From Dehalococcoidia bacterium (GTDB lineage: Bacteria; Chloroflexota; Dehalococcoidia; Lucifugimonadales; UBA3495): a stretch of DNA of 64,000 nucleotides. Both the position numbers and the translations under genes were made by a program. The stretch spans positions 898,778 through 962,777 of the forward strand of contig OZ242042.1 of NCBI GenBank assembly GCA_965204905.1. The letters run 5' to 3'. Shown here piece after piece: positions 14,251 through 56,242 of this stretch. Numbering within the stretch: position 1 is the first letter of the stretch; each line of letters starts with the position of its first letter. The notes under the pieces are model-generated. The model saw nothing but the letters and a program-made list of their open reading frames with translations, ran no database searches and was not told where the DNA came from.

Positions 14251-14321
14251 TGTCGCCGTGGTGGGTCTCTGTGCCGGCTGCCGGGCGGGAAAATAGTCCG
14301 ACAATCTGGGCGGTGTTAGCC

Positions 14322-14411
14322 GCGCTCAGGCGGGCCCGTTTGGGCCACGGCGGTGTTGGGCAAGGGAAATCGGCGAGCCTGCCGCGGCGCCAAACGGTGG
14401 CGTCCGGGCGC
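14322..14411 (+). repeat. E-type structured repeat
   Basis: GCGCTCAGGCGGGCCCGTTTGG ... GCCAAACGGTGGCGTCCGGGCGC. Confidence 0.7.
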
Positions 14412-26780: not shown

Positions 26781-26935
26781 GTGTCGTCCCTGTTCTTCGG
26801 TCTCATGGCACTGGCGGCAGGCGTCGGCGAGGGTGCCGTCGGGGAGTATGGTCTTCTCGTTGCCGCAGTCGCAGGTGCGCTCGAGGATCTGGAGGGCGAG
26901 GTCGAACTCGCGGGTGCGGTTGGCATCGTCGATGT
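26781..26935 (-). pseudogene. Family B fragment (B5), C-terminal zinc-ribbon part only
   Basis: Encodes ..ANRTREFDLALQILERTCDCGNEKTILPDGTLADACRQC.. and is nearly identical at DNA level to B1/B2. Confidence 0.6.
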
Positions 26936-30624: not shown

Positions 30625-31275
30625 CTAGAAGTCGTCGGTGGCGCAGTCCTCGGGCTCGTACTCGTCTTCCAAGCGTTCCGGGCAGTCTGCGGCCGTGATG
30701 TCGCAGAAGCAGCACTCCTGTCGGCTGAGCACTCGTCTTGCCGGTTCGTCGGCTGACAGGCGGCGGATCAGCGCGCCCAGGTTCTGGATGAACTGCTCGT
30801 CGACGGCCTCTGCCGAAACGCGGACCGTGTGATCGCGGTAGGTGACCTGCCCCCTGAGTTTGGCGTTTCGATACCGCTGGAGTGCCTTGGGGATGGCGTA
30901 CAGGTAGATCATGACCTGGACGGTGTGGCTTGGGCTTTGGTGGCCGGTCTTGGCGTCGACGATGACGGCGTGGTCCTCCCTGCGGGCGATGATGTCAGGT
31001 CGGCCGGCGAGTGTCGCGGTCTTGCCGTGGAGTTCAAACCGGTTTTGGGCCTCGATGTCGACGTCGTGGCCGCCGACGGTCCAGTTGGCGATGCGCTGGT
31101 TGAGGAGCGCGCTGTGGTCGAGCATCGACTTGGCTCGGTCGAAGTCGGACGGGACGCGTTCCCAGCTTTGATGGTGGGCCTTGAACCAGATGGCCCACTC
31201 GCAGGAGTTCTCGCCGGTGAGTAGCCTGGGCAGCCAGGTTGCCCAGATGTAGGGGAAATCTCGTTGCTCGGCCAC
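30625..31275 (-). CDS. Cas4-like PD-(D/E)XK nuclease (family A, copy A3)
   Basis: GTG start. ENSCEW, GRPDII..AVIVDAKTG, QVMIYLY and CCFCDITAADC. Confidence 0.8.
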   Translation of the reverse strand: MAEQRDFPYIWATWLPRLLTGENSCEWAIWFKAHHQSWERVPSDFDRAKSMLDHSALLNQRIANWTVGGHDVDIEAQNRFELHGKTATLAGRPDIIARREDHAVIVDAKTGHQSPSHTVQVMIYLYAIPKALQRYRNAKLRGQVTYRDHTVRVSAEAVDEQFIQNLGALIRRLSADEPARRVLSRQECCFCDITAADCPERLEDEYEPEDCATDDF

Positions 31276-32537: not shown

Positions 32538-32990
32538 TCACATCTCGGCCGTTCGTTTCTGTGATGCTTGTGTGATTTTGCGCCGGGCCGGCCGTCCTTG
32601 GTCCTCGAGGTCCTGACACTGTCTGCAGGATTCGGCGAGGGTGCCGTCGGGGAGTATGGTCTTCTCGTTCCCGCAGTCGCAGGTTCGCTCCAGGATCTGG
32701 AGGGCGAGGTCGAACTCCCGGGTGCGGTTGGCGTCGGCGGCGCAGTGTTCGCGCTTGAGTTGGTCGAATTTGATAGCGAACCGGGCGTAGGCGGTTTGAC
32801 GCTTGTTGGCTTTGATGTCGGCGCGGCCTTTGGAGACCCACTTGCCGAGGGTGCTGGGGGACATGGAGACGCCGTACTCGCTGGCGTGTCTGACGACGTC
32901 GTGGTAGGTGCCGTCGGTATCGGGGAGGGCGCGCAGGACGGCGGCGATGTTCGGAGCGGTGAATTGTGCGGTGTTGTTGAAGTTGGTCAT
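32538..32990 (-). CDS. Small HTH + zinc-ribbon protein (family B, copy B1)
   Basis: 150 aa. HTH-like YHDVVRHASEYGVSMSPSTLGKWVSKGR, then CDCGNEK...CRQC. Confidence 0.7.
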   Translation of the reverse strand: MTNFNNTAQFTAPNIAAVLRALPDTDGTYHDVVRHASEYGVSMSPSTLGKWVSKGRADIKANKRQTAYARFAIKFDQLKREHCAADANRTREFDLALQILERTCDCGNEKTILPDGTLAESCRQCQDLEDQGRPARRKITQASQKRTAEM

Positions 32991-33038
32991 GGTGTCCTCC
33001 TGGTGGCTCTCGGTTTCTCCTCCAGGTGTGGGACTTGT

Positions 33039-33126
33039 GCTTGGACGGGCTCAGTTTGGGCTGATTGGCCGGGCCGGCCCGTCGGGTAGGATAACGGCGG
33101 TTGGGGCGAAACGGTATTGTCTTGGG
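33039..33126 (+). repeat. C-type structured repeat, 5' of B1
   Basis: GCTTGGACGGGCTCAGTTTGGG...GGGTAGGATAACGG...GCGAAACGGTATTGTCTTGGG. Confidence 0.7.
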
Positions 33127-33511
33127 TTGCTGTGCAGGGCCTTTTCAAAGTTGTGCGATTGAAGTCTATCCGCTCGTCCTGAGCTGCCGTAGGTCCGCCA
33201 GTGGCGGGTCGAAGGACGCGCTCGTGGTTCGACGGGCTCCCGCCTCAGGCGGACGTTCCGCACCATGAGCGAGCACAGGGGACTTTGGAGCGGCCCTGGT
33301 TGCTGTGGCGGGCTGATTATCAGGGCACCGGGTAGCGGAACGGGCGACCCATCAGAAACACGCCAAATCCGGCCCGTAGCCGAATTTTTGCGCCGCCCTC
33401 GAATAGTATTGTGGAATCGAGGAGAGGCCGTCACGGGGCGTCTGGGAGGTGTCCTCGCCCCTTCATTTTTCGGGGTTGTGCGTCCGTTCTACCCGCGTGG
33501 GGTGAGAGTGT

Positions 33512-33558
33512 GCGAGACATGGGCGGAGCGAGGTCACACCGCTCCGCCCATGTCTCGC
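33512..33558. other. Perfect 19-bp inverted repeat
   Basis: GCGAGACATGGGCGGAGCG-aggtcacac-CGCTCCGCCCATGTCTCGC, about 140 nt downstream of the 33699 stop. Confidence 0.6.
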
Positions 33559-33698
33559 AGCTACACCGGTTGGATTGATATATGTTTTGCGTCTTGGTTG
33601 TCTCCGGGTCTTCGTGGTGCTTGGCGTTATCGTGCCGGCGAAGAGGCTCTGGCATACGATGCCGGAGCCTGTGCTGAAGGTCTGCCGGTTCGTCTGAT

Positions 33699-35288
33699 TT
33701 AGCGAAAGCTCTCGAGCATTGCTCTTATCTGGGCCTTGAGGTCCAGTATCCGCCCGGCCGTCCGTTCACTCGGATTTGCTTCCTCGATCTTGTTCAGCAC
33801 TTCCAGGGCTGTTCCCCATTCTATTGTGATCCCTGATCTTTCGCTCCAGTTCATCAGCAAGTCGGTAGCTAGGTCAGGGTACGAGGACACCGCGCTTGAG
33901 CGTTTGAGCTCGATGAAAAGTGGAATGTCCGGTCCGTTCCATGGGGTCGCTTTTGCTAGTGTCACGGCTTCGGCGAAAGGTTCGGTCAGGTGGGGCACCC
34001 ACCCAACCATGTGGGTGCCCTCCGCCGGGCTGATCGGTTTGGGAGAACCCCTGTTGCGGTCTTGCCAATATTCCCTGACCCAGCGCTCCCACCAGTCTTT
34101 CTGCTGTTCGACGTCGGCTTCCCGGAGCCTGTTTTTCACGGCCTCGGCGACGAGCTCAGCCGTTTCCTTGCTGCTGGTTTTGACGGTTTCCTTGAGCCAC
34201 TCCCTTGGTTCCGCGGCGTAATGGCAGAGTAGCTTCGTGTATGCGTCGGCGAAGAGGCGTTTGGCACTGAGTTCGTTGTTCGGTTGCTCGACGAGTTCAC
34301 TGAATTTGTCCTGGAAAATATTCCCCAGCACTTGGGCCACTTGTGGGGTGATATTCTGTGCTTCGACTAGCCCACCCCATGCGGCTCTCTCTCTGTTCCC
34401 ACCGCTAGTGAACATCGGTTGGATGATTTCTTCGGCCCACGGCTGGTCAACGTGCCACAGAAACCCGGCCTGTCCCGCGAGGATTGCCGCGCCCAGGTTT
34501 CCTTTGAGAGAGTCATCGGCAACGATCTGGTTAAGACCCCTCATGCTGGTGGGACTGAATCTTTCTCTCTGCGATGTCCGTGTCCTGACGGCTGTCGATT
34601 CTAGCCAGAACGTGGTGAGGTATCCCATCTGGTAGAAGTTGAACGCTGCTTCGTGCCACCCTTGAACCGGAATATCTTCGCCGCTTCTGAGGTGGTCCCA
34701 TAGCGGCAGCGCCACCTGCTCTGCTTCGTCGATGAGATTGATGGCGTAGCTTTTGCCTCCGTTTCTCGTCAAAGCGTGAAGGCTTTCGGCTATGTCCCCG
34801 GCGTGGTGCGTGTAGACGTCTTGCATGGAGAACCATTCCAGAACTTTCCGGTATTGCTCCTCTTGCAGGTCGGCCACACGCCATCCCGATATGATGTCTT
34901 TCCATACAGGCTCCGACCACTGCCGTTGCTTGGCCAATTCTCGGGCTACGCCGTCCCCCCATTGGGGGTTTTGGCGCGTCGTCTCCTGAACGCTCCACAG
35001 GCCTGGTATGAGTTCCTCGGGTTGCGCCTGGCGGTTGCTCTCCATGAGCCAACTGACGAGTTGCTCTGCCGCCGTTTCCTTCAGGGAATCCGGTGTGAAA
35101 GGGTCGCCGCTGATGACCACGGGTTCACTTATCATCAGCCCCGGCTGTAGCGGGTCTGTCCATTCCCAACTGTGTGCTTCCTCCATCGGCGCGATCTCAT
35201 CCCTGAGTATCTGGCACTCCGGGGCGGTTTCTTGCAATGCCTTCAGCAGGTTGTACCGGCGGCGCTCGGTTGCGTTCTGAGCGGTCAT
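33699..35288 (-). CDS. Large all-helical Trp-rich partner of the SIR2 protein (DUF4020-like, from memory)
   Basis: 529 aa with its own RBS GAGGAAGAG, 23 nt after the SIR2 stop. C-terminal WWERWVREYWQDRNRG...MVGWVPHL. Confidence 0.7.
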   Translation of the reverse strand: MTAQNATERRRYNLLKALQETAPECQILRDEIAPMEEAHSWEWTDPLQPGLMISEPVVISGDPFTPDSLKETAAEQLVSWLMESNRQAQPEELIPGLWSVQETTRQNPQWGDGVARELAKQRQWSEPVWKDIISGWRVADLQEEQYRKVLEWFSMQDVYTHHAGDIAESLHALTRNGGKSYAINLIDEAEQVALPLWDHLRSGEDIPVQGWHEAAFNFYQMGYLTTFWLESTAVRTRTSQRERFSPTSMRGLNQIVADDSLKGNLGAAILAGQAGFLWHVDQPWAEEIIQPMFTSGGNRERAAWGGLVEAQNITPQVAQVLGNIFQDKFSELVEQPNNELSAKRLFADAYTKLLCHYAAEPREWLKETVKTSSKETAELVAEAVKNRLREADVEQQKDWWERWVREYWQDRNRGSPKPISPAEGTHMVGWVPHLTEPFAEAVTLAKATPWNGPDIPLFIELKRSSAVSSYPDLATDLLMNWSERSGITIEWGTALEVLNKIEEANPSERTAGRILDLKAQIRAMLESFR

Positions 35289-35311
35289 AGCGTCTCTTCC
35301 TCGTTGGAGTC

Positions 35312-37201
35312 CTATCGGAGGGCCTCGACTACGCGTCGTCGATAGTCATCGCTGAGATCCTTGAATTCCTCAATGAGCAGTTGGTCCGTCTCAAGATTTC
35401 TCCCGCTGTCCATGGGCACGGCCTTCCTAAATAGCCACTCGACTTTTTCGTGTGCCCTTTGGTCCGGTCTCATGCGGACTGAATGGACGGCGAGCCTTCT
35501 TGCCAGCGGGGACTGGGAGGCTATCAGGCGGTCCAGCCATGATTCCAGCAGTTCCGGTTCATTCTGTCCCATCCACTCCAAGCAGTCTCTGGCGATGTTC
35601 ACCATCTGGTCGATGCCCGCTTCTCGGCGGTTGCCTTGGGAATCCCCTATCATGTGACGGCCTGAAGAGTCTGTGTCGCGTTCGGCGGTGGCCAGACCCC
35701 ATTGCTCCAGGGTTCTATGTCGGTTTTCGATATGCCTCACCGCGTGGTCCAGGGTTATGGCCGCGACCGTTCCCATGTGCTGGTTCACGTTGGCCCAGGC
35801 CGCCGACAATATCCAGGCCTCTCCCAAGGTCGTCAGCTCGATTTGGTTCCCTGCGGGTCGCCTTGGTTGCGCTCTGATGACAGGCCGGAACAATTCGTCG
35901 AAGATGTTCGCGGCTTCTTGGTATAGTTCGCTCTGCACACCTAGTTCAGCCAGCCGGTATAGGCCGTCCGATTTGCGGGCATCCTGGTCTGCTGGGGTTG
36001 CTGAGAGCAGGTACGATACCCATCGGCTTATCGTGCTGGACGTTCTGGTATGTCCATCATCGAGGAGCCGGTGGGTGATGTCCCACCAGATTTGCGGATG
36101 GAGTTTTTGTCCGGCTTGCGTGATCGTGGCTATGGCTTCGTCTGGGTCGTGAGCAGCAAGCAGTCGCGCCAACCACGTCAGAAGCGTGCCATTTTCCGTG
36201 ATGGGCGCGTCGTCAAAAGCCCCCGCGACGTACTGCTTGTCTATGCACCACTCGACCCATCGGAGGCTCTGTGCGTTCGCTGTGAATGCCGGCGTGAGTT
36301 CCGGGTCCTGCAATGCTCGGTCGATGATGTTCTGCGATCCTGTGTCAAGGGGAGGATTCGGTTGGCTCGCTATTTGCGCGATCATCTGGTGCCATGTTGA
36401 GGAAGACCTTCTCTGGTACTCCGCCAGCTCGGCGATGGCTTCGGCTGCCTCGTCATGGTTTTGGTTTTCCCCTAGTTGGTAAGCGATGGGTTCTATACCT
36501 AGAGAATGCCAACTTTGATTGCCAACCGTCAGTTCGTGCGTGAGAATGAACCTCCGCGCTGGTTCGTTGCTGGTCGGCATGGCCCGCGCCAGATAGCGCA
36601 CTATCGGGTCTTGGTGGCTGTAGCCGACGAAGAGGACGTGCTGTGTCCTGAAAAGTCCTTGGAGGAACTCCAGTGCCCAGCGTTCGTCCAAGTATGCTCT
36701 GCCTATGTCTGAGTCCGTTAGGACCATGTCTTGAGGCTGGTCAATTACTCCGTGCAGGTCCACTATTCCGGTGAATCGTCCGCAGGGCGGAAGTGCCGGC
36801 GCAGCGTAAACTTTCCCGGTTTGTTGGATTTCCTTTCCTGCGCTCGTCGCCTCGAACAATTGGTCGAAGTTGGTGGTTACGAGTTTTGGCGTCGCCCCCC
36901 TTGGTCGAATGTCCAACAGGTCTCGATGAAGTTGGTTTGGATGGGCGCCCGTGAGTTGCTCAACGATGTAGGCTCTTATGTCGCGTCCCTCCATTTCAAG
37001 CCTACCGAGGAACTGATCGTCATTTTCCTCTTCGGTTCGGTTCACTTGGAAGTGCTCCTGCACTTGTTTTAGCAGAAGAGGAAAACTGGGCAGGTTCGAT
37101 GGGCTTGGGATCGACACGCCAGCTCCGGCGAAGACCACCAAGTTATCGTCGCGGAGTGCGTTCATCAGCCTATCGTTGAATTCTACGTTCCCGAGTTTCA
37201 T
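35312..37201 (-). CDS. SIR2_2-family (sirtuin-like NADase-type) protein with a helical C-terminal extension
   Basis: LVVFAGAGVSIPS (GAGxS), VTTNFDQLFE and IVDLHGV. About 350 aa of helical repeats follow. Confidence 0.85.
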   Translation of the reverse strand: MKLGNVEFNDRLMNALRDDNLVVFAGAGVSIPSPSNLPSFPLLLKQVQEHFQVNRTEEENDDQFLGRLEMEGRDIRAYIVEQLTGAHPNQLHRDLLDIRPRGATPKLVTTNFDQLFEATSAGKEIQQTGKVYAAPALPPCGRFTGIVDLHGVIDQPQDMVLTDSDIGRAYLDERWALEFLQGLFRTQHVLFVGYSHQDPIVRYLARAMPTSNEPARRFILTHELTVGNQSWHSLGIEPIAYQLGENQNHDEAAEAIAELAEYQRRSSSTWHQMIAQIASQPNPPLDTGSQNIIDRALQDPELTPAFTANAQSLRWVEWCIDKQYVAGAFDDAPITENGTLLTWLARLLAAHDPDEAIATITQAGQKLHPQIWWDITHRLLDDGHTRTSSTISRWVSYLLSATPADQDARKSDGLYRLAELGVQSELYQEAANIFDELFRPVIRAQPRRPAGNQIELTTLGEAWILSAAWANVNQHMGTVAAITLDHAVRHIENRHRTLEQWGLATAERDTDSSGRHMIGDSQGNRREAGIDQMVNIARDCLEWMGQNEPELLESWLDRLIASQSPLARRLAVHSVRMRPDQRAHEKVEWLFRKAVPMDSGRNLETDQLLIEEFKDLSDDYRRRVVEALR

Positions 37202-37852
37202 GAGCGTTCGCGCTTCAATTGGTCCACTGACTTAGGACACGGACCGGACTGCAGTCGCCGGTGAATCGGACAACGGGAGTGCCTTGTTTCGTGGCTTCCC
37301 GTTCGTCACCGAGCATGGTGGCCGCGACCGTTTTGACGCCGCGTCGCGAGCACGAATCATTGAGCCTGGGGCGTCTCGAGAACGCCTCGGGCTTATCCGG
37401 CGAAGCGGCTTGAAGCAAGCCCAACGCGGTGGCGTCTTGTTCCACGCTGGACCGGGACGGTGATGCCCAGCCAGTTGCCGGCAATCTTGTTCCACTCCAT
37501 TCGCGTGTCCGTTGGGACTATCCCAACGTTCCGTCCTTGGGGCAGGAGCCTGACGGGCGGAGAACCGTGTAGCGGCGGTTTGGACGGCCGGCTATGATGT
37601 TCGCAAACAGACCGTCGAAACGCGATTGTGGATGCCAATGTTACATCGGGCTAAGGTTTCGGTAAAGTAGCGCGGCGTCGGCCCATGATTTCGGTACCCC
37701 GCGGAGTCGATACCAACCCGTTTGGCTACCCTGCAGCCACAGTCATCTGACAGCGGCACGATCATGGCGATTTACCAAGTTATCTCCAGTCAGGACGGTT
37801 GCGGAATTCGTCGGTATATTCGTCAATATCCGCCCCTGATCCCAAGGATTTG

Positions 37853-37868
37853 GAGTAACGAAATTTCC
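37853..37868 (+). repeat. Junction motif copy M1 (GAGTAACGAAATTTCC)
   Basis: One mismatch to the GAGTAGCGAAATTTCC consensus. It sits where the B gene is missing next to an orphan C repeat. Confidence 0.6.
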
Positions 37869-37917
37869 CCGGTGGCCACCAGGCGGTCTTCGTTGTCTCC
37901 TCCAGGTGGGGCTTGTG

Positions 37918-38005
37918 CTCAGACGGGCTCAGTTGGGCTGCATGGCCGTACCGGCCCGGGGCGGGTAGGATAAAGGGGTTTCAGGCGAAACGGTAGTGTC
38001 TGGGG
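37918..38005 (+). repeat. C-type structured repeat (orphan, B gene lost)
   Basis: CTCAGACGGGCTCAGTTGGG...GGGTAGGATAAAGG...GCGAAACGGTAGTGTCTGGGG. Confidence 0.7.
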
Positions 38006-38160
38006 TTGCGGAGGCGGGCTGTTTATCGGGGTGCCGGGTATTGGAACGGGCGGCTCGAGTGGGCCGCCCTATCGTGTGAGTGGGTTTGGTTGGTGTGATC
38101 TCGGGACGGGGACGGTGTTGGGTTCGGAGCCTTACGACACGGGTATCTTGGTGGCGTTGG

Positions 38161-38621
38161 TCATGCTTCCCCTGCCGGTGTCCTTGATGGCTCGACCGGG
38201 TATATGTAGCCGGTGCCGTCCATGGTGGCGTTTTCGGCGTGGGTGATCAAGGTGGCGATTATGGTGGTGCTGGGGCGAATGCGACACCGGCACGATTGGA
38301 TCTTTGTTGGTCCTGTTCGTTGCTGTGGGCGAGGACGTACGTTGAGCTGACGGTGCCGGGCAGACCCTCGGGGTCGTGGACGTGGTGTACGCTGTTGTAC
38401 TGATGCCTTCGCGCCAACGGGATTGGTCAACCAGCGGTTAGGTCGCTGGTTGGGGTGAACCCTGCGCGCGGAATATGGTCGGTATAGCCGGCGTAGTCGG
38501 GACGGTCGTGGATGCTGACCCTGCTCAGTCCCAGGTGTTGGTGCAGGCGCCAATGCCGTTCGTGTCGACGTCGCTCCAGTTGAATCTTGCCTTGGCCGAC
38601 AGTCGGGAGGTGGGCGGGCAA
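38161..38621 (-). pseudogene. Degraded Fn3-type gene (paralog of 47482-47931)
   Basis: About 460 nt alignable by eye with 47482-47931. The coding frame switches between copies, and the ending NATMDGTGYIYPVEP resembles the Fn3 tail TTYIYRVEA of 50722-51576. Confidence 0.4.
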
Positions 38622-38638
38622 TATGAGTGGCTTGGGCT

Positions 38639-38728
38639 GCGCTCAGGCGGGCCCGCTTTGGTTTTGTGCTCGTTGGGCACGGGAAGACGCCGAGTAAGCC
38701 GCGGCGCCAAACGGTGGCGTCTGGGCGC
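38639..38728 (+). repeat. E-type structured repeat
   Basis: GCGCTCAGGCGGGCCCGCTTTGG...GCCAAACGGTGGCGTCTGGGCGC. Confidence 0.7.
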
Positions 38729-39061
38729 GTGCTGACTGGCCCGGTTGGACGGGACTGGGCGTTCGACGCCGCCTTGGGTCGTGTAAATGTCGGGGCGGCG
38801 GTTGCGTCAGGCTGGGCCGTCCGTTTTGCGGGCGGTAGAAGTCGTCATGCTGGGCGAGCGTGTGGTTGTGGCGTCGTGCTTGGTTGTGGGGTCGACTTTG
38901 ACCGGGGCGCGGACGTGGAAACGGCTGCCCCATTGATAGGAGCGGCCGGCGTCGCGGTGATCGGTGCCGTGTTGATTGTGCCGGTTGCGGATGGCGAAGC
39001 GTGACGGCCCGGCGTCATCGGATCGCGAGCCGGGCGTTCTCGGCTTGCTGGTGGCGGAGCG

Positions 39062-39144
39062 TTCAGGCGGGCTGGTTTGGCCTGCTGGGTCCGTGGTGGC
39101 CCATGCAGCGTATGAGCGGTTGAGGCCAAACGGGGGAGTCTGGG
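39062..39144 (+). repeat. C-type structured repeat (diverged)
   Basis: TTCAGGCGGGCTGGTTTGG...GCCAAACGGGGGAGTCTGGG. Confidence 0.55.
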
Positions 39145-39510
39145 TTAGCTATGGCGCCTTCGTTCGCGTCAGACGAGACTGAGACATGGGGGATTGTTCC
39201 GGAGCAATTGGATGCCCTGGTTGGCTTGGGCGTGCCGCGGATTAGCCCGAATCCACCGAAGGGATGCGGTGGGGCTGGTCAGACGGGGTATGAAAGATCA
39301 GTGGAAGGGCCGGCAGGGGTTTGATCCCGATGGATTGGTATAAGTGCCGAGTGTGTCAGGGGAGCGATGGGGGGTTTTTGGCGGGTCGCGGTGCCGGTGG
39401 CAGGCGAGATCAGCATGCCGATTACATCAGGAGACACGCGGGGACTAGCCTGGTGCAGATTTGCGAGGCAGTTGGACAGTCTGGCAGTCGGGTGAGACGC
39501 TGTTGGGCGA

Positions 39511-39860
39511 TCAGGAGGGTAGAGGCAGGGCGCGCAATCGGGCCAGAGCGCTGCTGAACTGGTTCTGCCAGGGCTAGCCTTGGGGCAGATGCAAAGTGAG
39601 GCGGCGGGCCGAGCGAGTGATGCGTCCGGCCAGGGAGAAGAAACGTCGTCGGGGGGTCTTGGTGGTTGCCACCGGCTCACCCAGCCCGATGCGCGTCCTC
39701 CAGCGTGCCAAGTTGTGCGCGATGCCCCCGTTTCGAGTATGGGGCAGGCTCTGTACGGCCAGCCAAGCGGCGTTGGCGGTAAAGCGTCCCGAGGGTTCGA
39801 AGCTGTTCGGGCAATGTTGCAGGCCCGGTTCCGGGGATGTTCGAGTCTGAGTAGCGAAAC
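39511..39860 (-). pseudogene. IS1380-family transposase, C-terminal part only
   Basis: GRFTANAAWLAV..AHNLARW..GLGEPVATTKTPRRRFFSLAGRITRSARRLTLHLPQG*PWQNQF. An in-frame TAG at 39574-39576 replaces Trp. The N-terminal part is deleted up to motif M2. Confidence 0.65.
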
Positions 39861-40012
39861 GGCCTATCTTGTTTGCCAGGTGGATTGAAAGTCTTTTCGA
39901 TTGGCGGTATTGTAGATCCACGTGAACCCATCAGGGTCCTCCTCGATATCAGAGGGCACAAGGAGCCTGGTGACTTGAACCCCGGGGCGTTGGTTTAGCC
40001 GACGCCCCGTAC
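39849..40012 (+). other. Conserved ~165-nt unit X1 (starts with motif M2, ends in a hairpin)
   Basis: Aligns by eye with 54854-55020. Hairpin GGGGCGTTGG-tttag-CCGACGCCCC at 39984-40008. Confidence 0.55.
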
Positions 40013-40045
40013 CTATGGGCTAATCCTGCGCCGCCGGGGTAGTAG

Positions 40046-40225
<180 letters not shown>

Positions 40226-40272
40226 AATGCGGTAACGTAACGAATATGACCCTTCGCCAGGTATTAGCCCGA

Positions 40273-41901
40273 TCAAGATTGGACGCCGATGATCTTGTCC
40301 CAGTCGGTTGACTGCTGGTAGGCGTAGGCGGCCCTCATGAGGAGCGGGTCGTCGAAGTAGCGGCCGACCAGCTGCATGCTGACTGGGAGACCAGCTGACG
40401 ACTTGCCCACGGGAAGGGCGAGGGCTGGATGCCCGGTGTAGTTGAAGGGCAGAGTGTTGTGAGAGACGCTCGAGTTCACCGTCGCCAGGTTCTCCTCCAC
40501 GGCCTCCAGGTAGCTACCCGGAGTTTGGTTCTTGGGCGCCGTCATGATGCATGTGGGCATCACGAGCACGTCGAGGTTAGCAAGTACGGCGTCATAGGCT
40601 TTGATGTAGGTGGGACGCACATTCTGGGCCTTGGCGTACACCCGGCCGTGGTAGTTGCGCCGGCTCAACTCGGCGGCGATGAGCGACAGCTTGCTGCGTG
40701 GCGCAAGCACGTCGGCCTGAGAGGCCCACAGCTTGTTAATGGCGGCGATGACGGAGGCGGGGTAGTAGGTCCGGGCGAAGGCGCCGAAGAACCCAGTTTT
40801 AAAAATGGCGAGGGCGCCTTCGCCCGTGAGCGCGGCCTGGGCCGCGCGGATGGTGTGGTGCTCCGGGACGGACACCTGGGATACGTCGGCACCTGCCTCT
40901 GCGAGGACGTCGACCGCCGCCATCACCAGGTCGCGCACATCGGCCTCGGCATCGTCGAAGCCCTCCTCGAGCACCCCGATGCGCAGCCCGGACACACCGT
41001 CGGCCAGCCGGCCGAGCAGGTCAATGCTGGTGGGGACGTTTCGTGTCTGGCGGGGATCGTAAGGGTCGTAACCCGCCGTGGCCTGGAGGGTAGCCGCTGC
41101 ATCCTCCACGGTACGGGTCAACGGACCCGTGTAGTCGATGCTCTGGTCCGAGCCGAAGCCGATACCGAAATGCGACAGCAATCCGAAGGTGGGCTTGTGT
41201 CCGACGATGCCGGAGAAAGCCGCCGGGATACGGATGGAGCCGCCCTGGTCGCCGCCGAAGGAGATGTCCACATCCCCGGCGGCCACGGCCGCGGCGGAGC
41301 CCGAGGACGAACCGCCGGTCACGTGATGGTGGTCGTGGGGATTGAGGGGACGGCCGTAGTCGCCGATGGCGCCGCCGGTGCCGAAGCCTCCACTCAGGCC
41401 GTTCATGACGTTCTTGCCGATGATCGTGCCCCCCTCCTTCAGCACCCGGGTGACGACAGTTGCGTCGAAGTCGGGGATGAAGCCTTCGAGGGCGAAGGAG
41501 CCGAAGCTCATGGGTATGCCTGCCACGGCGATGTGGTCCTTGTAACTGACTGTCTTGCCGGCAAGCAGACCTTCGGCCGCCCCTTCGATTCGGCATTTCC
41601 ACATCCAGGCGTTGAGTGGGTCTTCTTCCGCGCTCGGCCGGTACCCGGGCTCGCGGGCGGTAGAGACCATCGGAGGTTTGGGCTCCTCCAACCGGGCCTG
41701 CACGAAGGTGTCCAACTGTCCCAGCTGTTCCACCAGGTACTTCTGGTACGTAACGGCCTCATCGGGACTCAGGTGAATCCCCAACTCCTTGGCCACGGCC
41801 ACCACTTCATCGACGTCAGGTGCTGCGTACATGAGGCTCTTCTCCTCTGACTGTAGACTTCCTGGATCGGCGGGATTTGAATCGAGATTTTCTATTTCCA
41901 C
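40273..41901 (-). CDS. Amidase-signature family enzyme (GatA-like amidase)
   Basis: GGSSSGSAAAVAAG signature and 542 aa from a GTG start. An alternative ATG lies at 41832. Confidence 0.9.
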   Translation of the reverse strand: MEIENLDSNPADPGSLQSEEKSLMYAAPDVDEVVAVAKELGIHLSPDEAVTYQKYLVEQLGQLDTFVQARLEEPKPPMVSTAREPGYRPSAEEDPLNAWMWKCRIEGAAEGLLAGKTVSYKDHIAVAGIPMSFGSFALEGFIPDFDATVVTRVLKEGGTIIGKNVMNGLSGGFGTGGAIGDYGRPLNPHDHHHVTGGSSSGSAAAVAAGDVDISFGGDQGGSIRIPAAFSGIVGHKPTFGLLSHFGIGFGSDQSIDYTGPLTRTVEDAAATLQATAGYDPYDPRQTRNVPTSIDLLGRLADGVSGLRIGVLEEGFDDAEADVRDLVMAAVDVLAEAGADVSQVSVPEHHTIRAAQAALTGEGALAIFKTGFFGAFARTYYPASVIAAINKLWASQADVLAPRSKLSLIAAELSRRNYHGRVYAKAQNVRPTYIKAYDAVLANLDVLVMPTCIMTAPKNQTPGSYLEAVEENLATVNSSVSHNTLPFNYTGHPALALPVGKSSAGLPVSMQLVGRYFDDPLLMRAAYAYQQSTDWDKIIGVQS

Positions 41902-42047
41902 CGGTCCCGGCCTTATCTGATGAAACGAGGGGAGAGTACGCCCGCCCCTGGAAGCCTGTCAACAATCATCCCCCCGCCTTCAGGTTCGATTTCACTCTTC
42001 CCCAGCTTATGCGAGCATTATTCATGGTCATACAGAACCACGGTAAG

Positions 42048-42380
42048 CCACGGCGCGGCACCGTCCGATGGAGTAGCCGTGGGTCGGCCTGTCTCGAGTC
42101 TATGGGGCGGTGCGTTGGGGTCGCGCTATGGGCGGCTGTCATCAAAAACTTGGCCGCCCCGTTGGTCAGGGCGGCCGGTGTCGCGGTTGGTCCGCGACGG
42201 GTCCATTGTGTCAGTTGTGGGCTCAGGTCCGCTACGGCTTGGTGTCATCAGATTGCCGCTCTGATGCCGCTGTCTTCGCTATCGAGGGACGCGCGCCCAG
42301 ACGGGCTGTGCTGGCTTGTCGGGTCTGCCGTGTCCCATCGTTGGGTAACCGCGTTTTGGCCGAAATGGGAGTGTGTGGGG
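42048..42380 (-). promoter_or_regulatory. Family A leader copy (UCR-A4) with no Cas4-like gene, about 150 nt upstream of the amidase; includes a C-type repeat at 42296-42380
   Basis: Aligns with UCR-A1/A3 over its whole length and even retains the CCAC (GTG start) remnant at 42048. Confidence 0.6.
42141..42176 (-). terminator. Intrinsic terminator in UCR-A4
   Basis: Same hairpin and U5 tract as UCR-A3. Confidence 0.55.
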
Positions 42381-42571
42381 TCGTCGTGTCACGTCGGAGG
42401 GTTGCCTGCCGGGTAGCAATAGGTGCGGCTCATAACTGGCCGCCCTTGGGTGTCAATCAGGGAGATTTCGTTACTCCGATCCCAGATCGTTCTCGTAAGG
42501 GACTGTCCAGCAATCTGACAGGTTTCGTAACCGGCCGGGCGGTTTCTCAGGAACACGCTCTGGTTGCATGC

Positions 42572-42943
42572 TCACTGGCCAGTCTCGTCGCTGATCACCT
42601 GGCGCAGTTGGACGATGCCTTGTGTCGTTGCCCGCCGTGCGGTCCTGAGTTCTGTTGGGCTCAGGTTGGCTTGGTAGAAGTGGGAATGCAGTCTTTCGGC
42701 GGCTGCCCAGTCCGAAACCCACCGTTCTGAACCCTGCAGGTCGCGCAGGTTGGTTGCAGTGTTGCGGTACGTTCCGTGGCTCAATGCCGGCCATCCTCTG
42801 AGTTCTGACACGGCCAGCGATAGTTGGGCATAGGCCCCCCACAGTAGTTCGGCGGCAATCATGGTGTTGCCGCCGGGGTTGAATTCTTGGTTGGAGCGTT
42901 CCATGAACTCCATGCTGGCGTCGAGCCGCTGCTGGGTGTTCAT
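42572..42943 (-). CDS. Hypothetical helical protein, PaREP1/HEPN-like pattern
   Basis: AAELLWGAYAQLSLAVSELRGWPALSH. 4-nt overlap with the upstream gene. Confidence 0.4.
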   Translation of the reverse strand: MNTQQRLDASMEFMERSNQEFNPGGNTMIAAELLWGAYAQLSLAVSELRGWPALSHGTYRNTATNLRDLQGSERWVSDWAAAERLHSHFYQANLSPTELRTARRATTQGIVQLRQVISDETGQ

Positions 42944-43632
42944 GCGGTTGCCCGCCTCTCGGCGTTCAGGTGGTTCGCCAGCTGGATGGCTCGCCTGGCG
43001 AAATTCCTGGCGTCTTCGTCGGAGCCGTTTTCGCTGTCGTATCCCATGCTGAACTTTACCAAGTCGGGCTGGGCCATGGCGGCGCTGAACGCGCTGGTCA
43101 GGTTATGGCCTAACTCTGATGAGTCGGCTAAGGCTTGGTGAACATCCCAGGTGATTTCTGGGTTCCGCCCAGTTGCCAGTAGTTCGACAGCTTCGTGGAC
43201 TCCGTCTTCGTCGTGGGACCAACCGTTTCGGGCGGCGATGGCGGCTATGGAACATATCACGGCGCTGGCCAGGCTTTCCGTGGCTTGCTGGTGTTGCATA
43301 TCCAGAAAATACAGGTCGGCTCGACTGAAGTAGTGAGTGGCTCGCTCGGTGGCGACTTCGTCTATGGTGTCGCTGAACTTATCTGCGACTGGAGCGTAGT
43401 CACGTTGGCTGTGCTGGTGCATTTGGGGGTGTATGGCGCCCTTCGTTGCTACGGCCGCCATGTGGGCGGCGTTGAGGGCGTCGGTGATCGGACGGCGGCT
43501 CTTGCTCACATCAACCCTTGCCAGCAGGTTATTCCGCAGTCTGTCGGCTTCGGCGGCGTTGACGGTGCCGACTTCCTTCTCGTAGGCGGCGATGGCGACG
43601 CGTTCCGCCAGGTCCAAGATGGTTTCATTCAT
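42940..43632 (-). CDS. Hypothetical helical protein, second PaREP1/HEPN-like pattern
   Basis: ATESLASAVICSIAAIAARNGWSHDEDGVH. Confidence 0.4.
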   Translation of the reverse strand: MNETILDLAERVAIAAYEKEVGTVNAAEADRLRNNLLARVDVSKSRRPITDALNAAHMAAVATKGAIHPQMHQHSQRDYAPVADKFSDTIDEVATERATHYFSRADLYFLDMQHQQATESLASAVICSIAAIAARNGWSHDEDGVHEAVELLATGRNPEITWDVHQALADSSELGHNLTSAFSAAMAQPDLVKFSMGYDSENGSDEDARNFARRAIQLANHLNAERRATA

Positions 43633-44103
43633 GCTGGTCTGCTCCCGTATGATGCGGGCCGCGTCGGTTTGGCAAGCCTCGAGTTTTGGCGACGCCCTTG
43701 ACCAACTGGAGCCGGCTGGTCAGTTCTTTTCGGGGGCTTGGTGGACATCGCGGTGGGCAAGTTCGGCGCGGGCTTGAACTCGTAGCTGACGGCAGTTTGT
43801 AACTAGAGTAACCTTTTTGCAACGGTTTGGTCAGTCTATATTCCCTACAATGGCCACGCCGGCGGGAAGTAACGCATCCCGCCGGCTGGACGGATGGAAT
43901 GAGGTTGTCATCCGCCCCGTCCAGAGGGCCGGGTCCGGCAAGGAACCGGCACTTGAAATTTGAAAGTCATCTGGCTCCGTGCGTTCCGCATGGTTCGGAC
44001 TCGTCCCACACCGCGTTTACCGGGTTCCGATGCGCCACAGCGCCAGGCGCACCAAACCGGCAAACGACTGACCGCATTCCTTATCGGCGAAAATCGACAG
44101 GCC

Positions 44104-44523
44104 CTACGGCGATCGCCGGGGCGGTCGTCCTTGGTCTTCAAGGTCCTGGCACTGGCGGCAGGTGTCGGCGAGGGTGCCGTCGGGGAGTATGGTCTTCTCG
44201 TTGCCGCAGTCGCAGGTTCGCTCCAGGATCTGGAGAGCGAGGTCGAACTCCCGGGTGCGGTTGTCGGCGGCGGCGCAGTGTTCGCGCTTGAGTTTGTCGT
44301 ACTTCAGGGCGAACCGGGCGTAGGCGGTTTGACGCTTGTTGGCCTTGATGTCGGAGCGGCCTTTGGAGACCCACTTGCCGAGGGTGGTGGGGGACAGGGC
44401 GACGCCGTACTCGCTGACCTGTCTGATGACGTCGTGGTAGGTGCCGTCGGTATCGGGGAGGGCGCGCAGGACGGCGGCGATGTTCGGAGCGGTGAATCGT
44501 GCGGTCTTGTTATCGTTGGCCAT
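44104..44523 (-). CDS. Small HTH + zinc-ribbon protein (family B, copy B2)
   Basis: 139 aa. TLGKWVSKGRSDIKANKRQTAYARFA and CDCGNEK..CRQC. Confidence 0.7.
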   Translation of the reverse strand: MANDNKTARFTAPNIAAVLRALPDTDGTYHDVIRQVSEYGVALSPTTLGKWVSKGRSDIKANKRQTAYARFALKYDKLKREHCAAADNRTREFDLALQILERTCDCGNEKTILPDGTLADTCRQCQDLEDQGRPPRRSP

Positions 44524-44570
44524 GGTGTCCTCCTGGCAGTCTTCGTTCTCTCCTCCAGGTGGGACTTGTG

Positions 44571-44656
44571 CTCAGCCGGGCTGGTTTGGCCTATTTGGCC
44601 GTACGGGCCCGTGGGGTAGGATAACGGTGTTTGGGGCGAAATGGTAGCGTCTCGGG
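44571..44656 (+). repeat. C-type structured repeat, 5' of B2
   Basis: CTCAGCCGGGCTGGTTTGG...GGGTAGGATAACGG...GCGAAATGGTAGCGTCTCGGG. Confidence 0.7.
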
Positions 44657-44666
44657 TTGCTTACCA

Positions 44667-44682
44667 GGCGATTTCGCTACTC
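44667..44682 (-). repeat. Junction motif copy M3
   Basis: Plus strand GGCGATTTCGCTACTC, reverse complement GAGTAGCGAAATCGCC. Confidence 0.6.
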
Positions 44683-44777
44683 CAAAGTAGGCGTGCCTAC
44701 CGGGTCTTCGAGTGAGGTGCACATGGTACCTACCGACATACTTCAGAGGTTGCTCAGACGGCGGAAAATGAAAAGAG

Positions 44778-45041
44778 GTGAATGGCATGGATTTTGTGAT
44801 AGTCATGATCGTCGGAGCGATCTTGATCGCCACTACGGCCACAATCGCCAGTTCAATCGCAGGGCGGAAGGCGGCTGAGCGACAGCAGAGGTCGTTCAAT
44901 GATGACCGGATCGTAGCCGAGGTCAGAATCAGGGTTACCTCCACCGTCGCTTGGATCTGGGCCACAGTGTGCACCGCTTTGTTCGGGAGCGGGGCCGTTT
45001 TGTACAAGGTCGGCGACATCGTTGCCGCTCTGTGCAGATAG
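44778..45041 (+). CDS. Small hypothetical membrane protein
   Basis: 87 aa with two hydrophobic helices. It lies between the inverted motif copies M3 and M4. Confidence 0.35.
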   Translation: MNGMDFVIVMIVGAILIATTATIASSIAGRKAAERQQRSFNDDRIVAEVRIRVTSTVAWIWATVCTALFGSGAVLYKVGDIVAALCR

Positions 45042-47124: not shown

Positions 47125-47215
47125 GCGCTCAGGCTCTCCCGTTTGAGCATTCTCGGTGTTGGGCGGGGGGAATTCGGTGAGCCCGCCGCGGTGCCAAACG
47201 TTAACGCCTGGCGTC
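47125..47215 (+). repeat. E-type structured repeat (degenerate)
   Basis: GCGCTCAGGCTCTCCCGTTTGAG...GTGCCAAACGTTAACGCCTGGCG. Confidence 0.5.
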
Positions 47216-47283
47216 GCGGTGGCGCGGCGCTGCGGCCGGCTTCCGGGTGTGAAAATGGCTGGGCAATGGGAGCTGCTTGGGCT

Positions 47284-47370
47284 GCGCTCAGGCGGGCCAT
47301 TTTCGGTTCTGTGGGTTTTGGGCAGAAGAATTACGCCGAGCAAGCCGGGTCGCCAAACGGTGGCATCTGG
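47284..47370 (+). repeat. E-type structured repeat
   Basis: GCGCTCAGGCGGGCCATTTTCGG...CGCCAAACGGTGGCATCTGG. Confidence 0.65.
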
Positions 47371-47472
47371 TGACGCCGTGGCGGGTCGCTAGGCTGGCTG
47401 CCGGGTAATGAAAGGGTCTTTGCTGAGGCGTCCTGCTGGTGGGTAAGGTTCTGCCATGTGGGTTCGCACGGA

Positions 47473-47488
47473 GCAGTTTCGCTACGGG
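47473..47488 (-). repeat. Junction motif copy M6
   Basis: Plus strand GCAGTTTCGCTACGGG, reverse complement CCCGTAGCGAAACTGC. Confidence 0.5.
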
Positions 47489-47931
47489 TTGGTGCCGTAT
47501 GGGACGTTGATCTCGGCGTCGTTTGAAACGCTTGCCTTGCTGTTGTCCTCGATGGCTTCGACTGGGTAGATGCAGTGGGTGACGTTCATGATGGTGTTTT
47601 CGGCGTAGGTGATCGAGGGGCCGATTATGGTGGTGTCGGGTTCTCTCCGACACCGGCACGATTGGATCTTTTCTGGTCCTGGTCGTTGCTGTGGATGAGG
47701 CGTTACGTCGCGCTGACGTTCTCGGCTAAATCCCCGGGGTCGTGGACGTGGTGTACGTTGTTGTGCTGGTACGTCCACACGAAATGGTTTGCTCAACCAA
47801 GCGTTTTTGTCGCTGGTTGGGGTGAACCCTGCGCACGGTATATGGTCGGTATCGCCGGCGCAATCGGGTCGGTCGTGGATGCTGACCTTGCTCGGTCCCA
47901 GGCTGTTGATGCCGGCGCCAATGCCGTTCAT
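47482..47931 (-). pseudogene. Degraded Fn3-type gene (paralog of 38161-38621)
   Basis: The 149-aa ORF is open, but third-position GC is only coding-like in its last third. The middle is better in another frame, which ends in a stop (..VHHVHDPGDLAENVSAT*). Confidence 0.4.
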
Positions 47932-48007
47932 GTCTACGTGGCTCCGGTTGAACGTTGGTTTGGCCGCCGGGCGGCAAAATGGCCGGGCAATCTGAGCGGC
48001 TTGGGCT

Positions 48008-48098
48008 GCGCTCAGGCTTTCCTGTTTCGGTTCTGTGGATGTTGAGCAGGAAATTGACGCCGAGCAAGCCGCGGCGCCAAACGGTGGCGTCTGGGCGC
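48008..48098 (+). repeat. E-type structured repeat
   Basis: GCGCTCAGGCTTTCCTGTTTCGG...GCCAAACGGTGGCGTCTGGGCGC. Confidence 0.7.
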
Positions 48099-48418
48099 GT
48101 TCTGGCTGGCCCGGTTAAACGGGACCGGGAGGTCGACACCGTCTTGGGTCGCGTTGGTGGCCCGGGCGACGGTCGCGTCAGGCTGGGCCGTCCGTTTTAC
48201 GGTTGGCAGAAGCCGGCATGCTGGGCGAGAGCGTGGCGGTGACGTCGTGCTTGGTGGTGGTAGTGCCGACTTTGCCCGGGGCGCGGATGTGGAAAAGGCC
48301 GCCGCGTTGGTAGGAGCGGCCGGCGATGTGCTGATTGTGCTGTTCGGGGATGGCGACGAGTTGCGGCCCGATGTTATCGGATTGAGGGCCCGGTGTCGTC
48401 GGCTTGATGGTGGCGGAC

Positions 48419-48503
48419 GCGCTCAGGCGGGCTGGTTTGGGTTGTTGGGTCCGTATGGCCCTTGGTTAGGGTAACGGCGTTTCATACGAAATGGCGGCGT
48501 CTG
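48419..48503 (+). repeat. C-type structured repeat
   Basis: GCGCTCAGGCGGGCTGGTTTGGG...TTAGGGTAACGGCGTTT...AAATGGCGGCGTCTGG. Confidence 0.7.
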
Positions 48504-48890
48504 GCGGTGTTGTGGGTGGTCGTTAGGACAAATGGGGTGCAGCAAAAAGGGCGGCTGGTGTGGACTGCACTTGGACGTCAACTGGTCGCTGTTGGTTATG
48601 CTGGCATGTGTGTGCAGTGGGTTGCTCGGCTGTCAGTCGGTGCCCCGTCAAGTTGCTGAGCGACTCCTGCGCCCGAGGATCTGCTGCGGTGGCGGATGGC
48701 TTTTTCCTGTGGACCCTGCTAACCCATCAAAACGGATCCGAGTGTGACTGCCGTCGCATTGCCCGCCCTTGTTGCGGGCCGAACCGATTCCAGTACGGCA
48801 TCGCGTGTTGGGCACGGCTTTGCGGCAAATGACCCTACGTGATAGGTTACTTCTCGGTAACGGCAGTTTTCACCCGATGCGGGGTATCGA

Positions 48891-50106: not shown

Positions 50107-50469
50107 TCAAATTCTGGGTAGCGAAATTTCCTGCGTCATCTTCTCGTTGCCGCAGTCGCAGGTGCGCTCCAGGATCTGGAGGGCGAGGTCGAACCCGTGG
50201 GTGCGGTTGGCGTCGGCTGCGCAGTGCTCGCGCTTGAGTTGATCGTATTTCTGGGCGAACCGGGCGTAAGCGGTTTTACGCCTGTTGGCCTTGAGGTCGG
50301 TGCGGCCTTTGGAGACCCACTTGCCGAGGGTGGTGGGGAACAGGGTGACGCCGTACTCGCGGACCTGTCTGACGACGTCGTTGTAGGTGCCGTCGGTATC
50401 GGGGAGGGCGCGCAGGACGGCGGCGATGTTCGGAGCGGTGAATTGTGCGGTGTTGTTGAAGTTGGTCAT
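50107..50469 (-). pseudogene. Family B copy B3, truncated inside the zinc ribbon
   Basis: Near-identical to B1 for 107 aa. Homology stops right after CDCGNEK, exactly at motif copy M7, so the second Cys pair is lost. Confidence 0.65.
50116..50131 (+). repeat. Junction motif copy M7 (GGGTAGCGAAATTTCC)
   Basis: One mismatch. It marks the B3 truncation point. Confidence 0.6.
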
Positions 50470-50518
50470 GGTGTCCTCCTGGTGGCTCTCGGTTTCTCCT
50501 CCAGGTGTGGGACTTGTG

Positions 50519-50606
50519 CTTGGACGGGCTCAGTTTGGGCTGATTGCCCGTACCGGCCCGTCAGGTAGGATAACGATGTCTCGGGCGAGACGGTAGTGCT
50601 TGGGGT
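50519..50606 (+). repeat. C-type structured repeat, 5' of B3
   Basis: Almost identical to 33039-33126 in its first half. Confidence 0.7.
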
Positions 50607-50721
50607 TGCGGTGGCAGGCTATTTGTCGAGGTGCCGGGTAGTGGAAAGGGCGGCCCATTCGAGCTGCCCTTGCGTTTGGTGGTTTTCCCGGCGTAGTCGG
50701 ACCGGGGGTATTTGGCTTGCC

Positions 50722-55605: not shown

Positions 55606-55740
55606 GGGATCGGTGACGGTGGGTATGCTACGGCGTTGGCGGTGACGTCGGTGGCGTTCCTGCTGGCTTTGAAATCCCGTGGTTGGGCAAAGAGACTGAG
55701 AGGGTTTGATTTGGCCTATAGCTAGGCCGGCGCCTTTGAT

Positions 55741-55828
55741 GTAGGGTAGTGGAGATTGGAGCGAAACGGTGGCGTCTGGTGTTGTCATGGCGGGTCTCCG
55801 GGCTGGCTGCCGGGTATGAAAATGGGGT
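55741..55828 (+). repeat. 3' half of a C-type repeat plus its conserved extension
   Basis: GCGAAACGGTGGCGTCTGGTG...GGCTGGCTGCCGGGTATGAAAATGG, as at 14231-14296 and 47351-47417. Confidence 0.55.
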
Positions 55829-55838
55829 GCTCAAGGGA

Positions 55839-56242
55839 ACGGTCTGGTCATGGGAGTTTCTGGACAAGCGGGATCCCGTTCAACTGGAGGGACCGTCTGG
55901 TGCTGGCAAGAAATTTCTCGCCCAGATCTTGGGCTACTCGGCCATCCGCGTCGGACGCGCTGTGCGCGTCATCATTGACTTCCTCTGCCTCTACAGCCCA
56001 CTGCCCACCAGTCGGCCGATCTTTACGAACTCATCCTCAACCGCCGCCGTTCCTCCGGTTTCGTCATCACCAGCAACCGGGCCGTGGACGAGTGACTGAG
56101 CCTCTTCGACGATCCCATCCTCGGCAACAGCGCTTTGGATCGTTTGGCCAACGCCAGCTGCCAGATCGTCATCGAGGGTACCAGCTACCCGGAACGGCTG
56201 TCCCCACACCGCGTCCTGCTGGGTGCTACAGGAGGTGATTGA
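55839..56242 (+). pseudogene. IS21-family IstB helper ATPase remnant
   Basis: WEFLDKRDPVQLEGPSGAGKKFLAQILG (Walker A), then after a frame change ADLYELILNRRRSSGFVITSNRAVDE*LSLFDDPILGNSALDRLANAS with an in-frame TGA. Confidence 0.7.

Follow-up and report, generated by a model that had tools for sequence, protein, structure and literature searches.

Co-oriented intergenic elements heading gene units in a hyperplastic island of an uncultured Dehalococcoidia-like genome

A stretch of 64,000 nucleotides of contig OZ242042.1 from a Dehalococcoidia bacterium (assembly GCA_965204905.1, positions 898,778 to 962,777 of the forward strand), hereafter referred to as the window, harbors a family of short repeats, three units of which are contained in the region 37918-39144. 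The window is bacterial, with approximately 60% G+C and most of its genes on the minus strand, and it encodes dnaE, three IS1182-like transposases of insertion sequences (ISs), a SIR2 protein, an amidase, two DprA paralogues, giant fn3/LRR/CARDB proteins, three Cas4-like PD-(D/E)XK paralogues, and a helix-turn-helix (HTH)-M78 fusion protein. A small gene recurs among them, encoding a helical protein with a C-x-C...C-x2-C motif, referred to here as the HTH/zinc-ribbon gene. The plus strand is G- and T-rich, and the cumulative GC skew rises throughout the window despite this gene orientation. The array of repeats sits in a hyperplastic island of an uncultured Dehalococcoidia-like genome, and the repeat is a real, lineage-restricted family of approximately 88-base intergenic elements heading gene units. 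The family was absent from database and literature searches, which returned no earlier description; it is new among bacterial intergenic repeats, a known general kind, and has an unusual flavor reminiscent of attC sites or of the promoter-early stem-loops (PeSLs) of phages.

Copies in the window were located with a profile hidden Markov model built from the 14 full units listed in a first-pass annotation, which had been made from the sequence alone. The profile recovered these 14 copies and one more near 55.7 kb, all 15 on the plus strand with E-values from 1e-8 to 5e-19, and detected nothing comparable elsewhere in the window. Its matches to the full units span 7814-7916, 14164-14252, 14322-14407, 33038-33125, 37915-38005, 38639-38725, 39059-39144, 42293-42380, 44569-44655, 47125-47213, 47284-47372, 48008-48095, 48419-48505, and 50517-50605. 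The start motif CTCAGRCGGGC, with at most one mismatch, occurs 15 times against 4.1 expected, and none of 100 shuffles reached 15. The co-oriented family is thereby confirmed at all 15 sites of the first-pass annotation, and the descriptions given there of the end motifs and of C-type and E-type middles hold. Its "half copy" at 55741, by contrast, is a full-length diverged copy (55696-55782), and the unit length of 85-110 nt is narrowed to 85-92 nt, the only longer copy being that at 7814, which carries an insertion of approximately 17 nt. The view that the copies do not constitute a CRISPR array is shared here. The cores, as the repeats are termed below, are ruled out as coding sequence because two of the three frames contain stop codons and the cores differ by indels; an origin as copied tRNA-type attachment sites can likewise be dismissed, since a scan for tRNA and transfer-messenger RNA (tmRNA) genes was negative. 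Many copies lie within larger paralogous segments (e.g., 38120-39143 and 47486-48504, 78% identical), and the copies are therefore not independent events.

Of the 15 cores, all on the plus strand, 14 are assigned to the subtypes E, C (including C2 and C3), and H according to their middles. Four H cores are present. That at 33037-33127 is separated by a 46-nt leader (32991-33036, containing AGGAGG) from the ATG of the HTH/zinc-ribbon gene at 32538-32990 (minus strand), and that at 44568-44657 by a 44-nt leader (44524-44567) from the ATG of the copy at 44104-44523 (minus); the H core at 50516-50606 lies 114 nt after the stop of an fn3 gene (50722-51576, minus) and 47 nt before the ATG of the HTH/zinc-ribbon gene at 50107-50469 (minus). 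The H core at 37915-38006 adjoins a relic of a leader (37871-37914) with a mutated Shine-Dalgarno sequence, and a SIR2/DUF4020 segment replaces the HTH/zinc-ribbon gene; 42 nt from this core lies a GC-rich hairpin, GGGCGGC...GCCGCCC (38048-38069), which is terminator-like on either strand. Among the C cores, the C2 copy with the insertion (7814-7919) is located upstream, in gene sense, of the leader of a Cas4-like PD-(D/E)XK gene (6922-7725, minus), and after a second C2 core (42293-42381) come approximately 40 nt and then the remnant of a leader (42047-42250), which is fused with the amidase segment. The C3 core at 39059-39146 is followed in gene sense by approximately 55 nt and an open reading frame (ORF) starting MTPGR, a further C3 core occupies 48419-48507, and a C core at 14164-14253 heads a diverged or decayed HTH/zinc-ribbon gene (13696-14083, minus). 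The E core at 14322-14410 starts 158 nt after the start of the latter copy; those at 47125-47214 and 47284-47373 form a tandem pair with a spacing of 159 nt; that at 38639-38727 forms a long imperfect hairpin; and that at 48008-48097 lies 77 nt upstream, in gene sense, of an fn3-remnant ORF (47482-47931, minus). The two core pairs, 14164-14410 and 47125-47373, are linked by a conserved 70-nt spacer (GCCGGCTGCCGGG...GAAAATGG) with no ORF in between. The last core of the array (55696-55782) adjoins an IstB-like ATPase remnant and aligns end to end with a copy in a related locus, L013.

The conserved unit exceeds the repeat itself. Read in gene sense, that is, on the minus strand, it comprises a terminator-like GC-rich hairpin or a conserved spacer (TACCCGGCAGCC...), then the core, and then a leader of 40-55 nt with a Shine-Dalgarno sequence, which ends at the ATG of the next gene. 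The hairpin, approximately 42 nt from H cores, is that of 38048-38069; it is repeated at 50648-50669 and 42422-42445, occurs beside one C2 core in the window, and is found beside the H cores of the related loci L003, L007, and L013. H cores precede the ATG of the HTH/zinc-ribbon gene by 41-50 nt in all genomes, and C2 and C3 cores lie ahead of ORFs starting MTP(S/G)R. Modules share homology that begins approximately 25-45 nt outside the core and ends at the start codon. The flanks are specific to each subtype and conserved together with the core, and the subtype of a core tracks the downstream gene and not the upstream one.

Relatives were sought by a pattern scan of one genome per species of GTDB and on contigs encoding homologues of the HTH/zinc-ribbon gene. 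The GTDB scan yielded two chance matches and a single true locus, L003, a Dehalococcoidia metagenome-assembled chromosome with four co-oriented copies within 8 kb. The contigs reached through the gene homologues carry three (L007), five (L013), two (L014), and five (L015) copies; L016-L019, all reached via one homologue (P0018) and very similar in gene order, carry nine together, and one weak copy was found in L004. Altogether, approximately 30 further copies occur in similar arrays on nine related metagenomic contigs, and the approximately 44 copies on ten contigs share one orientation relative to genes. Those of the window, L003, L007, and L013-L019 all lie between co-directional genes and antisense to them, which bears out for every copy the antisense position noted in the first-pass annotation. 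No recognizable core was found upstream of the gene in L005 and L008, whose HTH/zinc-ribbon proteins are at most 64% identical, and scans of JGI metagenomes and IMG/VR returned only chance matches. On these grounds, the family is real but confined to a narrow lineage. A similarity search of phage records with 33000-45000 gave no match.

Breaks between paralogues and between close relatives, whether insertions or replacements, fall at the edges of units. The SIR2/DUF4020 segment (approximately 33150-37870) is flanked by two complete H units (32991-33130 and 37871-38009) of 79.6% identity, the second of which has a decayed Shine-Dalgarno sequence and no gene of its own; in L003, the H unit is directly followed by the HTH/zinc-ribbon gene and the slot of the SIR2/DUF4020 segment is empty. 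The segment encodes a SIR2-like protein of 629 aa and a partner of 529 aa with a weak, sub-threshold match to DUF4020 (33699-37201, minus), and this two-gene cassette looks like a defense system. At the amidase, L015 10524-12678 corresponds to window 42250-40094 at 97.4% identity, and the window holds an extra 1.85 kb, composed of two genes, a C2 core, and 40 nt, that ends at the same ATG. The amidase segment (window 40094-42250) is 97.4-97.7% identical in L007 (1-1808) and L015 (10524-12678), whereas the array modules are only 72-90% identical and differently arranged with respect to the same relatives; the island is therefore rearranged rapidly among close relatives. The amidase of L007 is inverted with respect to the array.

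Consensus and pairing were analyzed on alignments of 28 and 37 copies. Each core is bounded by a conserved 5′ box (GCGCTCAGRCGGGCTGGTTTGG) and a conserved 3′ box (CSAAACGGTRGCGTCTGGGG), and the variable middle in between defines the subtypes: E, several C types with TAGGGTAAC, and H with GGGTAGGATAAC. In plus sense, the boxes are, as the first-pass annotation had recognized, imperfect inverted repeats, CYCAGRCG-N5-GTTTSG and its complement, which match at 14 of 19 positions with a non-complementary N5; in gene sense, they read CCAGACG-N5-GTTTSG ... CCAAAC-N5-CGYCTGAG. Folding likewise reproduced the end pairing that the first-pass annotation had described for E-type copies: the termini form 11 pairs, two of them G:U, before a 3-nt internal loop and a further stem of CCGTTTGG/CCAAACGG. 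In this register, 80% of cells pair, against 52% or fewer when the 3′ partner is slid by one to three columns; the register is therefore real and the ends are truly complementary.

Such ends raise the explanation that the repeat is a structured RNA, either a small plus-sense RNA that is antisense to gene 5′ ends or a gene-sense element of the 5′ leader. Its position would suit a 5′ untranslated region or an antisense RNA covering the ribosome-binding site, the stability of folding modestly exceeds that of shuffles (mean z approximately -1.4), and a T-rich tail also follows, in plus sense, the hairpin located 42 nt beyond the H cores. The pairing itself, however, is no better than in column shuffles: within the two stems, 79.9% of cells pair against 82.0% in the shuffles with 28 copies, and 79.5% against 81.7% with 37, and pairs changed on both sides number 1-2 against 4.3-5.0 across the two alignments (2 against 5.0 with 37 copies). 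No compensatory change was observed in the stems of the 37 copies, and covariation, for which the first-pass annotation had proposed a test, is absent from them. The 5′ ends CTGAGAC or CTTGGAC occur without a matching 3′ change, the 3′ end GTCTCAG occurs uncompensated in L004, and the central hairpin of H copies, GGCCG-N3-CGGCC, is also broken without compensation. RNAalifold gave no consensus structure for the family in plus sense (-0.17 kcal/mol), and the gene-sense fold of core plus leader contained no compensatory pair. The choice of strand had earlier been argued from G:U pairs, and G:T indeed outnumbers A:C in plus sense (49 cells against 11). This excess stems mostly from two conserved positions and is gone once composition is controlled, the folding excess over dinucleotide shuffles being alike on both strands (mean z -1.41 on the plus and -1.31 on the minus strand). 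An Rfam search returned no match at the gathering score over the window and, at E-values up to 10 over 37800-39300, one irrelevant match (E = 8.9), and thus no related family. The evidence speaks against selection on a folded strand, and a structured RNA, including the antisense RNA considered in the first-pass annotation, is accordingly an improbable account of the repeat. The lack of compensatory change and of a folding strand preference fits sequence recognition in duplex DNA rather than a folded strand.

An explanation of similarly low probability holds that the repeat has no function of its own and is a passenger in segmental duplications of a cluster of fn3, HTH, and Cas4-like genes. Many copies do lie inside larger paralogous blocks, and the cluster of fn3 gene, core, HTH/zinc-ribbon gene, PD-(D/E)XK gene, and coiled-coil gene recurs in the window, L007, L013, and L016. 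Cores of close paralogues also diverge as fast as synonymous sites. Among H modules, mean identity is 83% in the core, 82% in the leader, 82% at third codon positions, and 51% in the 60 nt upstream. Against a passenger, the most diverged module retains a core that is 81-90% identical, compared with 66-68% at the third codon positions of the adjacent gene, and the core survives in modules whose gene was replaced (37915 and 42293). Furthermore, the end boxes are retained in several genomes and in the E, C, and H subtypes, which have nothing in common in their flanks or middles. The findings that had been expected to undo the earlier claim are thus present in part, namely, absent covariation and many copies within segmental duplications, but the retention of the boxes runs counter to them. 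The conservation pattern fits constrained boxes around a free middle.

The array also invites comparison with integrons. In that explanation, which is rather unlikely, the repeat is an attC-like site whose folded single strand is used by an unidentified recombinase, and the array is a sedentary cassette array, integron-like or of the type of a cluster of attC sites lacking integron integrase (CALIN). Conserved AAC/GTT triplets characterize attC boxes, which have RYYYAAC as the 5′ consensus and GTTRRRY as the 3′ consensus. The cores end instead in GCGCTCAGRCG (CYCAGRCG) and CGTCTGGGCGC (CGTCTGGG), and since GTTTGG precedes CCAAAC on both strands, the order GTT...AAC is reversed relative to RYYYAAC...GTTRRRY. 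The general layout is nevertheless similar: attC sites are co-oriented imperfect palindromes of 57-141 nt between cassettes, similar to each other within one array, with an R box, an unpaired central spacer, an L box, and a variable terminal structure (PMC4889954), and the array consists of co-oriented imperfect palindromes of 85-92 nt between gene units that include defense-type genes. Two stems, an unpaired spacer, and a variable center are common to both; in the cores, they take the form of an outer stem of 8-11 bp, a non-complementary spacer of 3-5 nt on each side, an inner stem of 6-8 bp, and the variable middle, and by raw energy the better-folding strand is opposite the genes, as in integrons. 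Besides the boxes and the absence of covariation in the stems, the extent of the unit speaks against an attC site. Whereas an attC site lies at the 3′ end of its cassette and contains the cassette boundary, the subtype here is linked to the downstream gene and its leader, and the unit runs to the downstream ATG; the SIR2 segment is flanked by whole duplicated units, not by a crossover inside the site. No tyrosine recombinase was found in the 64-kb window by Pfam, NCBIfam, and tblastn searches, although both ends of the array lie inside it. Fragments of tyrosine recombinases do occur beside the array end in L016-L018; those of L016 and L018, with 16 bits, are far below the integron-integrase cut-off of 265.

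The remaining candidate put forward in the first-pass annotation, a non-autonomous element resembling a MITE (miniature inverted-repeat transposable element) with imperfect terminal inverted repeats of approximately 19-22 nt, is the least probable of all, because, for all the inverted ends, the size typical of bacterial MITEs, the several IS elements in the island, and a 12/13 match between the core 5′ end and the inner part (CTCAGACAGGCTG) of the inverted repeat of the IS at 10471-11951, no target-site duplication was found around 28 copies (no flanking direct repeat above 3 nt, and a chance-level 3-mer in four), the copies share one orientation and subtype-specific conserved flanks, core-less paralogues differ by the core plus approximately 40 nt ending at the ATG rather than by a clean empty site, and the motif shared with the IS, missing from other IS copies, lies inward in the end of the IS while forming the tip of the core. 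This likeness to the IS is probably due to chance. The IS itself is an IS1182-like element with 16-nt inverted repeats (CTAGCAGYCTGTCTGA). In more general terms, the family resembles Correia, BOX, ERIC, and REP/BIME elements in size, intergenic location, inverted ends, and a possible effect on the expression of neighboring genes, and BOX elements additionally in the combination of conserved ends with a variable middle. It differs from them in its strict single orientation, the lack of target duplications, and its clustering in one type of island instead of dispersal, and neither a parent transposase nor a REP-associated tyrosine transposase (RAYT) was identified. Such interspersed intergenic repeats of bacteria, modular or palindromic in structure, MITEs such as Correia as well as BOX, ERIC, and REP/BIME, have been reviewed (PMC3184786, PMC2229807).

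Several genes of the island recur together with the cores. The HTH/zinc-ribbon gene has three intact copies in the window (32538-32990, 44104-44523, and 50107-50469, minus) and remnants at 13696-14083 and 26783-26931; its protein is restricted to this lineage, with one more copy elsewhere on the source contig (P0001). Family searches with this protein gave only weak sub-threshold matches (HTH_Tnp_1 and small terminase), and its AlphaFold model (predicted local distance difference test, pLDDT, 70) had no significant fold match in PDB or BFVD. The Cas4-like PD-(D/E)XK nucleases have a C-terminal cysteine cluster and are encoded at 6922-7725, 12131-12781, and 30625-31275 (minus), with a short relative at 5751-6011 (minus). 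They usually follow the HTH/zinc-ribbon gene and precede a coiled-coil protein, and this trio recurs in L007, L013, and L016-L019. A fused HTH_3 and M78 (ImmA/IrrE-like) protein of 391 aa (8003-9178, minus) lies inside the array, and its two parts are separate adjacent genes in L007. At the end of the array, the remnant of an IstB-like AAA+ ATPase (GPSGAGKKFLAQILG; 55749-56099, plus) adjoins the last core; its counterpart in L016-L018 precedes the tyrosine-recombinase fragment, which the window lacks. Just beyond the array, two DprA (DNA processing protein A) paralogues (59632-60693 and 61340-62248, minus) lie less than 3 kb apart. Three large surface-type genes (16490-25547, minus) encode proteins of 1134, 436, and 1469 aa with fn3, LRR, CARDB, and beta-propeller domains, and at the DNA level, repeats of the fn3 motif occur in several genes as well as in decayed remnants (38161-38553 and 47482-47931). 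A 417-aa ORF at 2532-3785 gave no family or PDB match, and the seeming resolvase fusion of P0032, which resembles a chimera of gene calling across a decayed stretch, was disregarded.

The explanation favored here, tentatively and with a probability of roughly 40%, is that the core would be a duplex-DNA regulatory module, a promoter or operator and/or a 5′ leader, which heads each unit and whose repetition would supply homology for the shuffling of cassettes. It is based on the strict orientation, the position between co-directional genes, a unit that stops at the ATG, breakpoints that fall at the edges of units, and stems that do not covary. Core and ATG are only 40-55 nt apart, a stretch that includes the ribosome-binding site, so that transcription would start in or just upstream of the core. 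The core would thus act as duplex DNA, either as a promoter or operator region or as the start of the 5′ leader, and its inverted boxes may be bound by a common factor, for which the small HTH/zinc-ribbon protein encoded behind many of the copies is a candidate. The many co-oriented copies would further provide homology for inserting, deleting, and swapping cassettes, including those of SIR2, amidase, PaREP1-like, and other genes, and these exchanges may proceed by homologous recombination.

Several observations weigh against the regulatory module. No convincing promoter of sigma-70 type was found in or beside the cores, where a consensus scan equaled the shuffle expectation and a weight-matrix scan gave only weak matches that differ between subtypes. 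Some cores lack a co-directional gene within 600 nt, and others form tandem pairs with a spacing of 158-159 nt and nothing in between. Moreover, the candidate binding protein has no informative fold or family match, the cores of close paralogues are no better conserved than synonymous sites, and the related loci were sampled only through the HTH/zinc-ribbon gene.

The closest described analogue of a head-of-unit module of this kind would be the PeSL, a composite terminator/promoter motif of T4-type phages (PMC2839356, PMC4122927). Both are short, conserved, and co-oriented intergenic motifs between co-directional genes in hyperplastic regions; in both, a stem-loop, here the terminator-like hairpin beside H cores and one C2 core, precedes a regulatory sequence, which is putative in the case of the cores; and both delimit the indels and replacements seen among close relatives, a pattern pointing to cassette exchange by homology. 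For PeSLs of T4-type phages, such a role in exchange has been shown. The cores differ from PeSLs in residing on a bacterial chromosome (dnaE, amidase, and dprA, with no phage match) rather than in a T4-type phage, in lacking a recognizable promoter, and in having inverted end boxes around a variable middle, which are undescribed in PMC2839356 and PMC4122927; the two share no sequence relationship. A bolder and unlikely extension would make cores and leaders the junctions of a chromosomal system dedicated to cassette exchange in Dehalococcoidia, which would be the cellular equivalent of integrons or of phage PeSLs. Incoming defense and accessory genes would then be placed behind portable expression units, and the HTH/zinc-ribbon protein and the Cas4-like PD-(D/E)XK nuclease might be part of the machinery.

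If the repeat were only a duplicated passenger, it would be an ordinary lineage-specific repeat. If, instead, the regulatory module proposed above is borne out, an uncultured lineage of Chloroflexota would build and reshuffle an island of defense and accessory genes without an integron integrase, and one conserved head-of-unit sequence would double as an expression signal and a recombination handle. The repeat would also offer a short sequence signature by which such islands can be detected in metagenome-assembled genomes of relatives.

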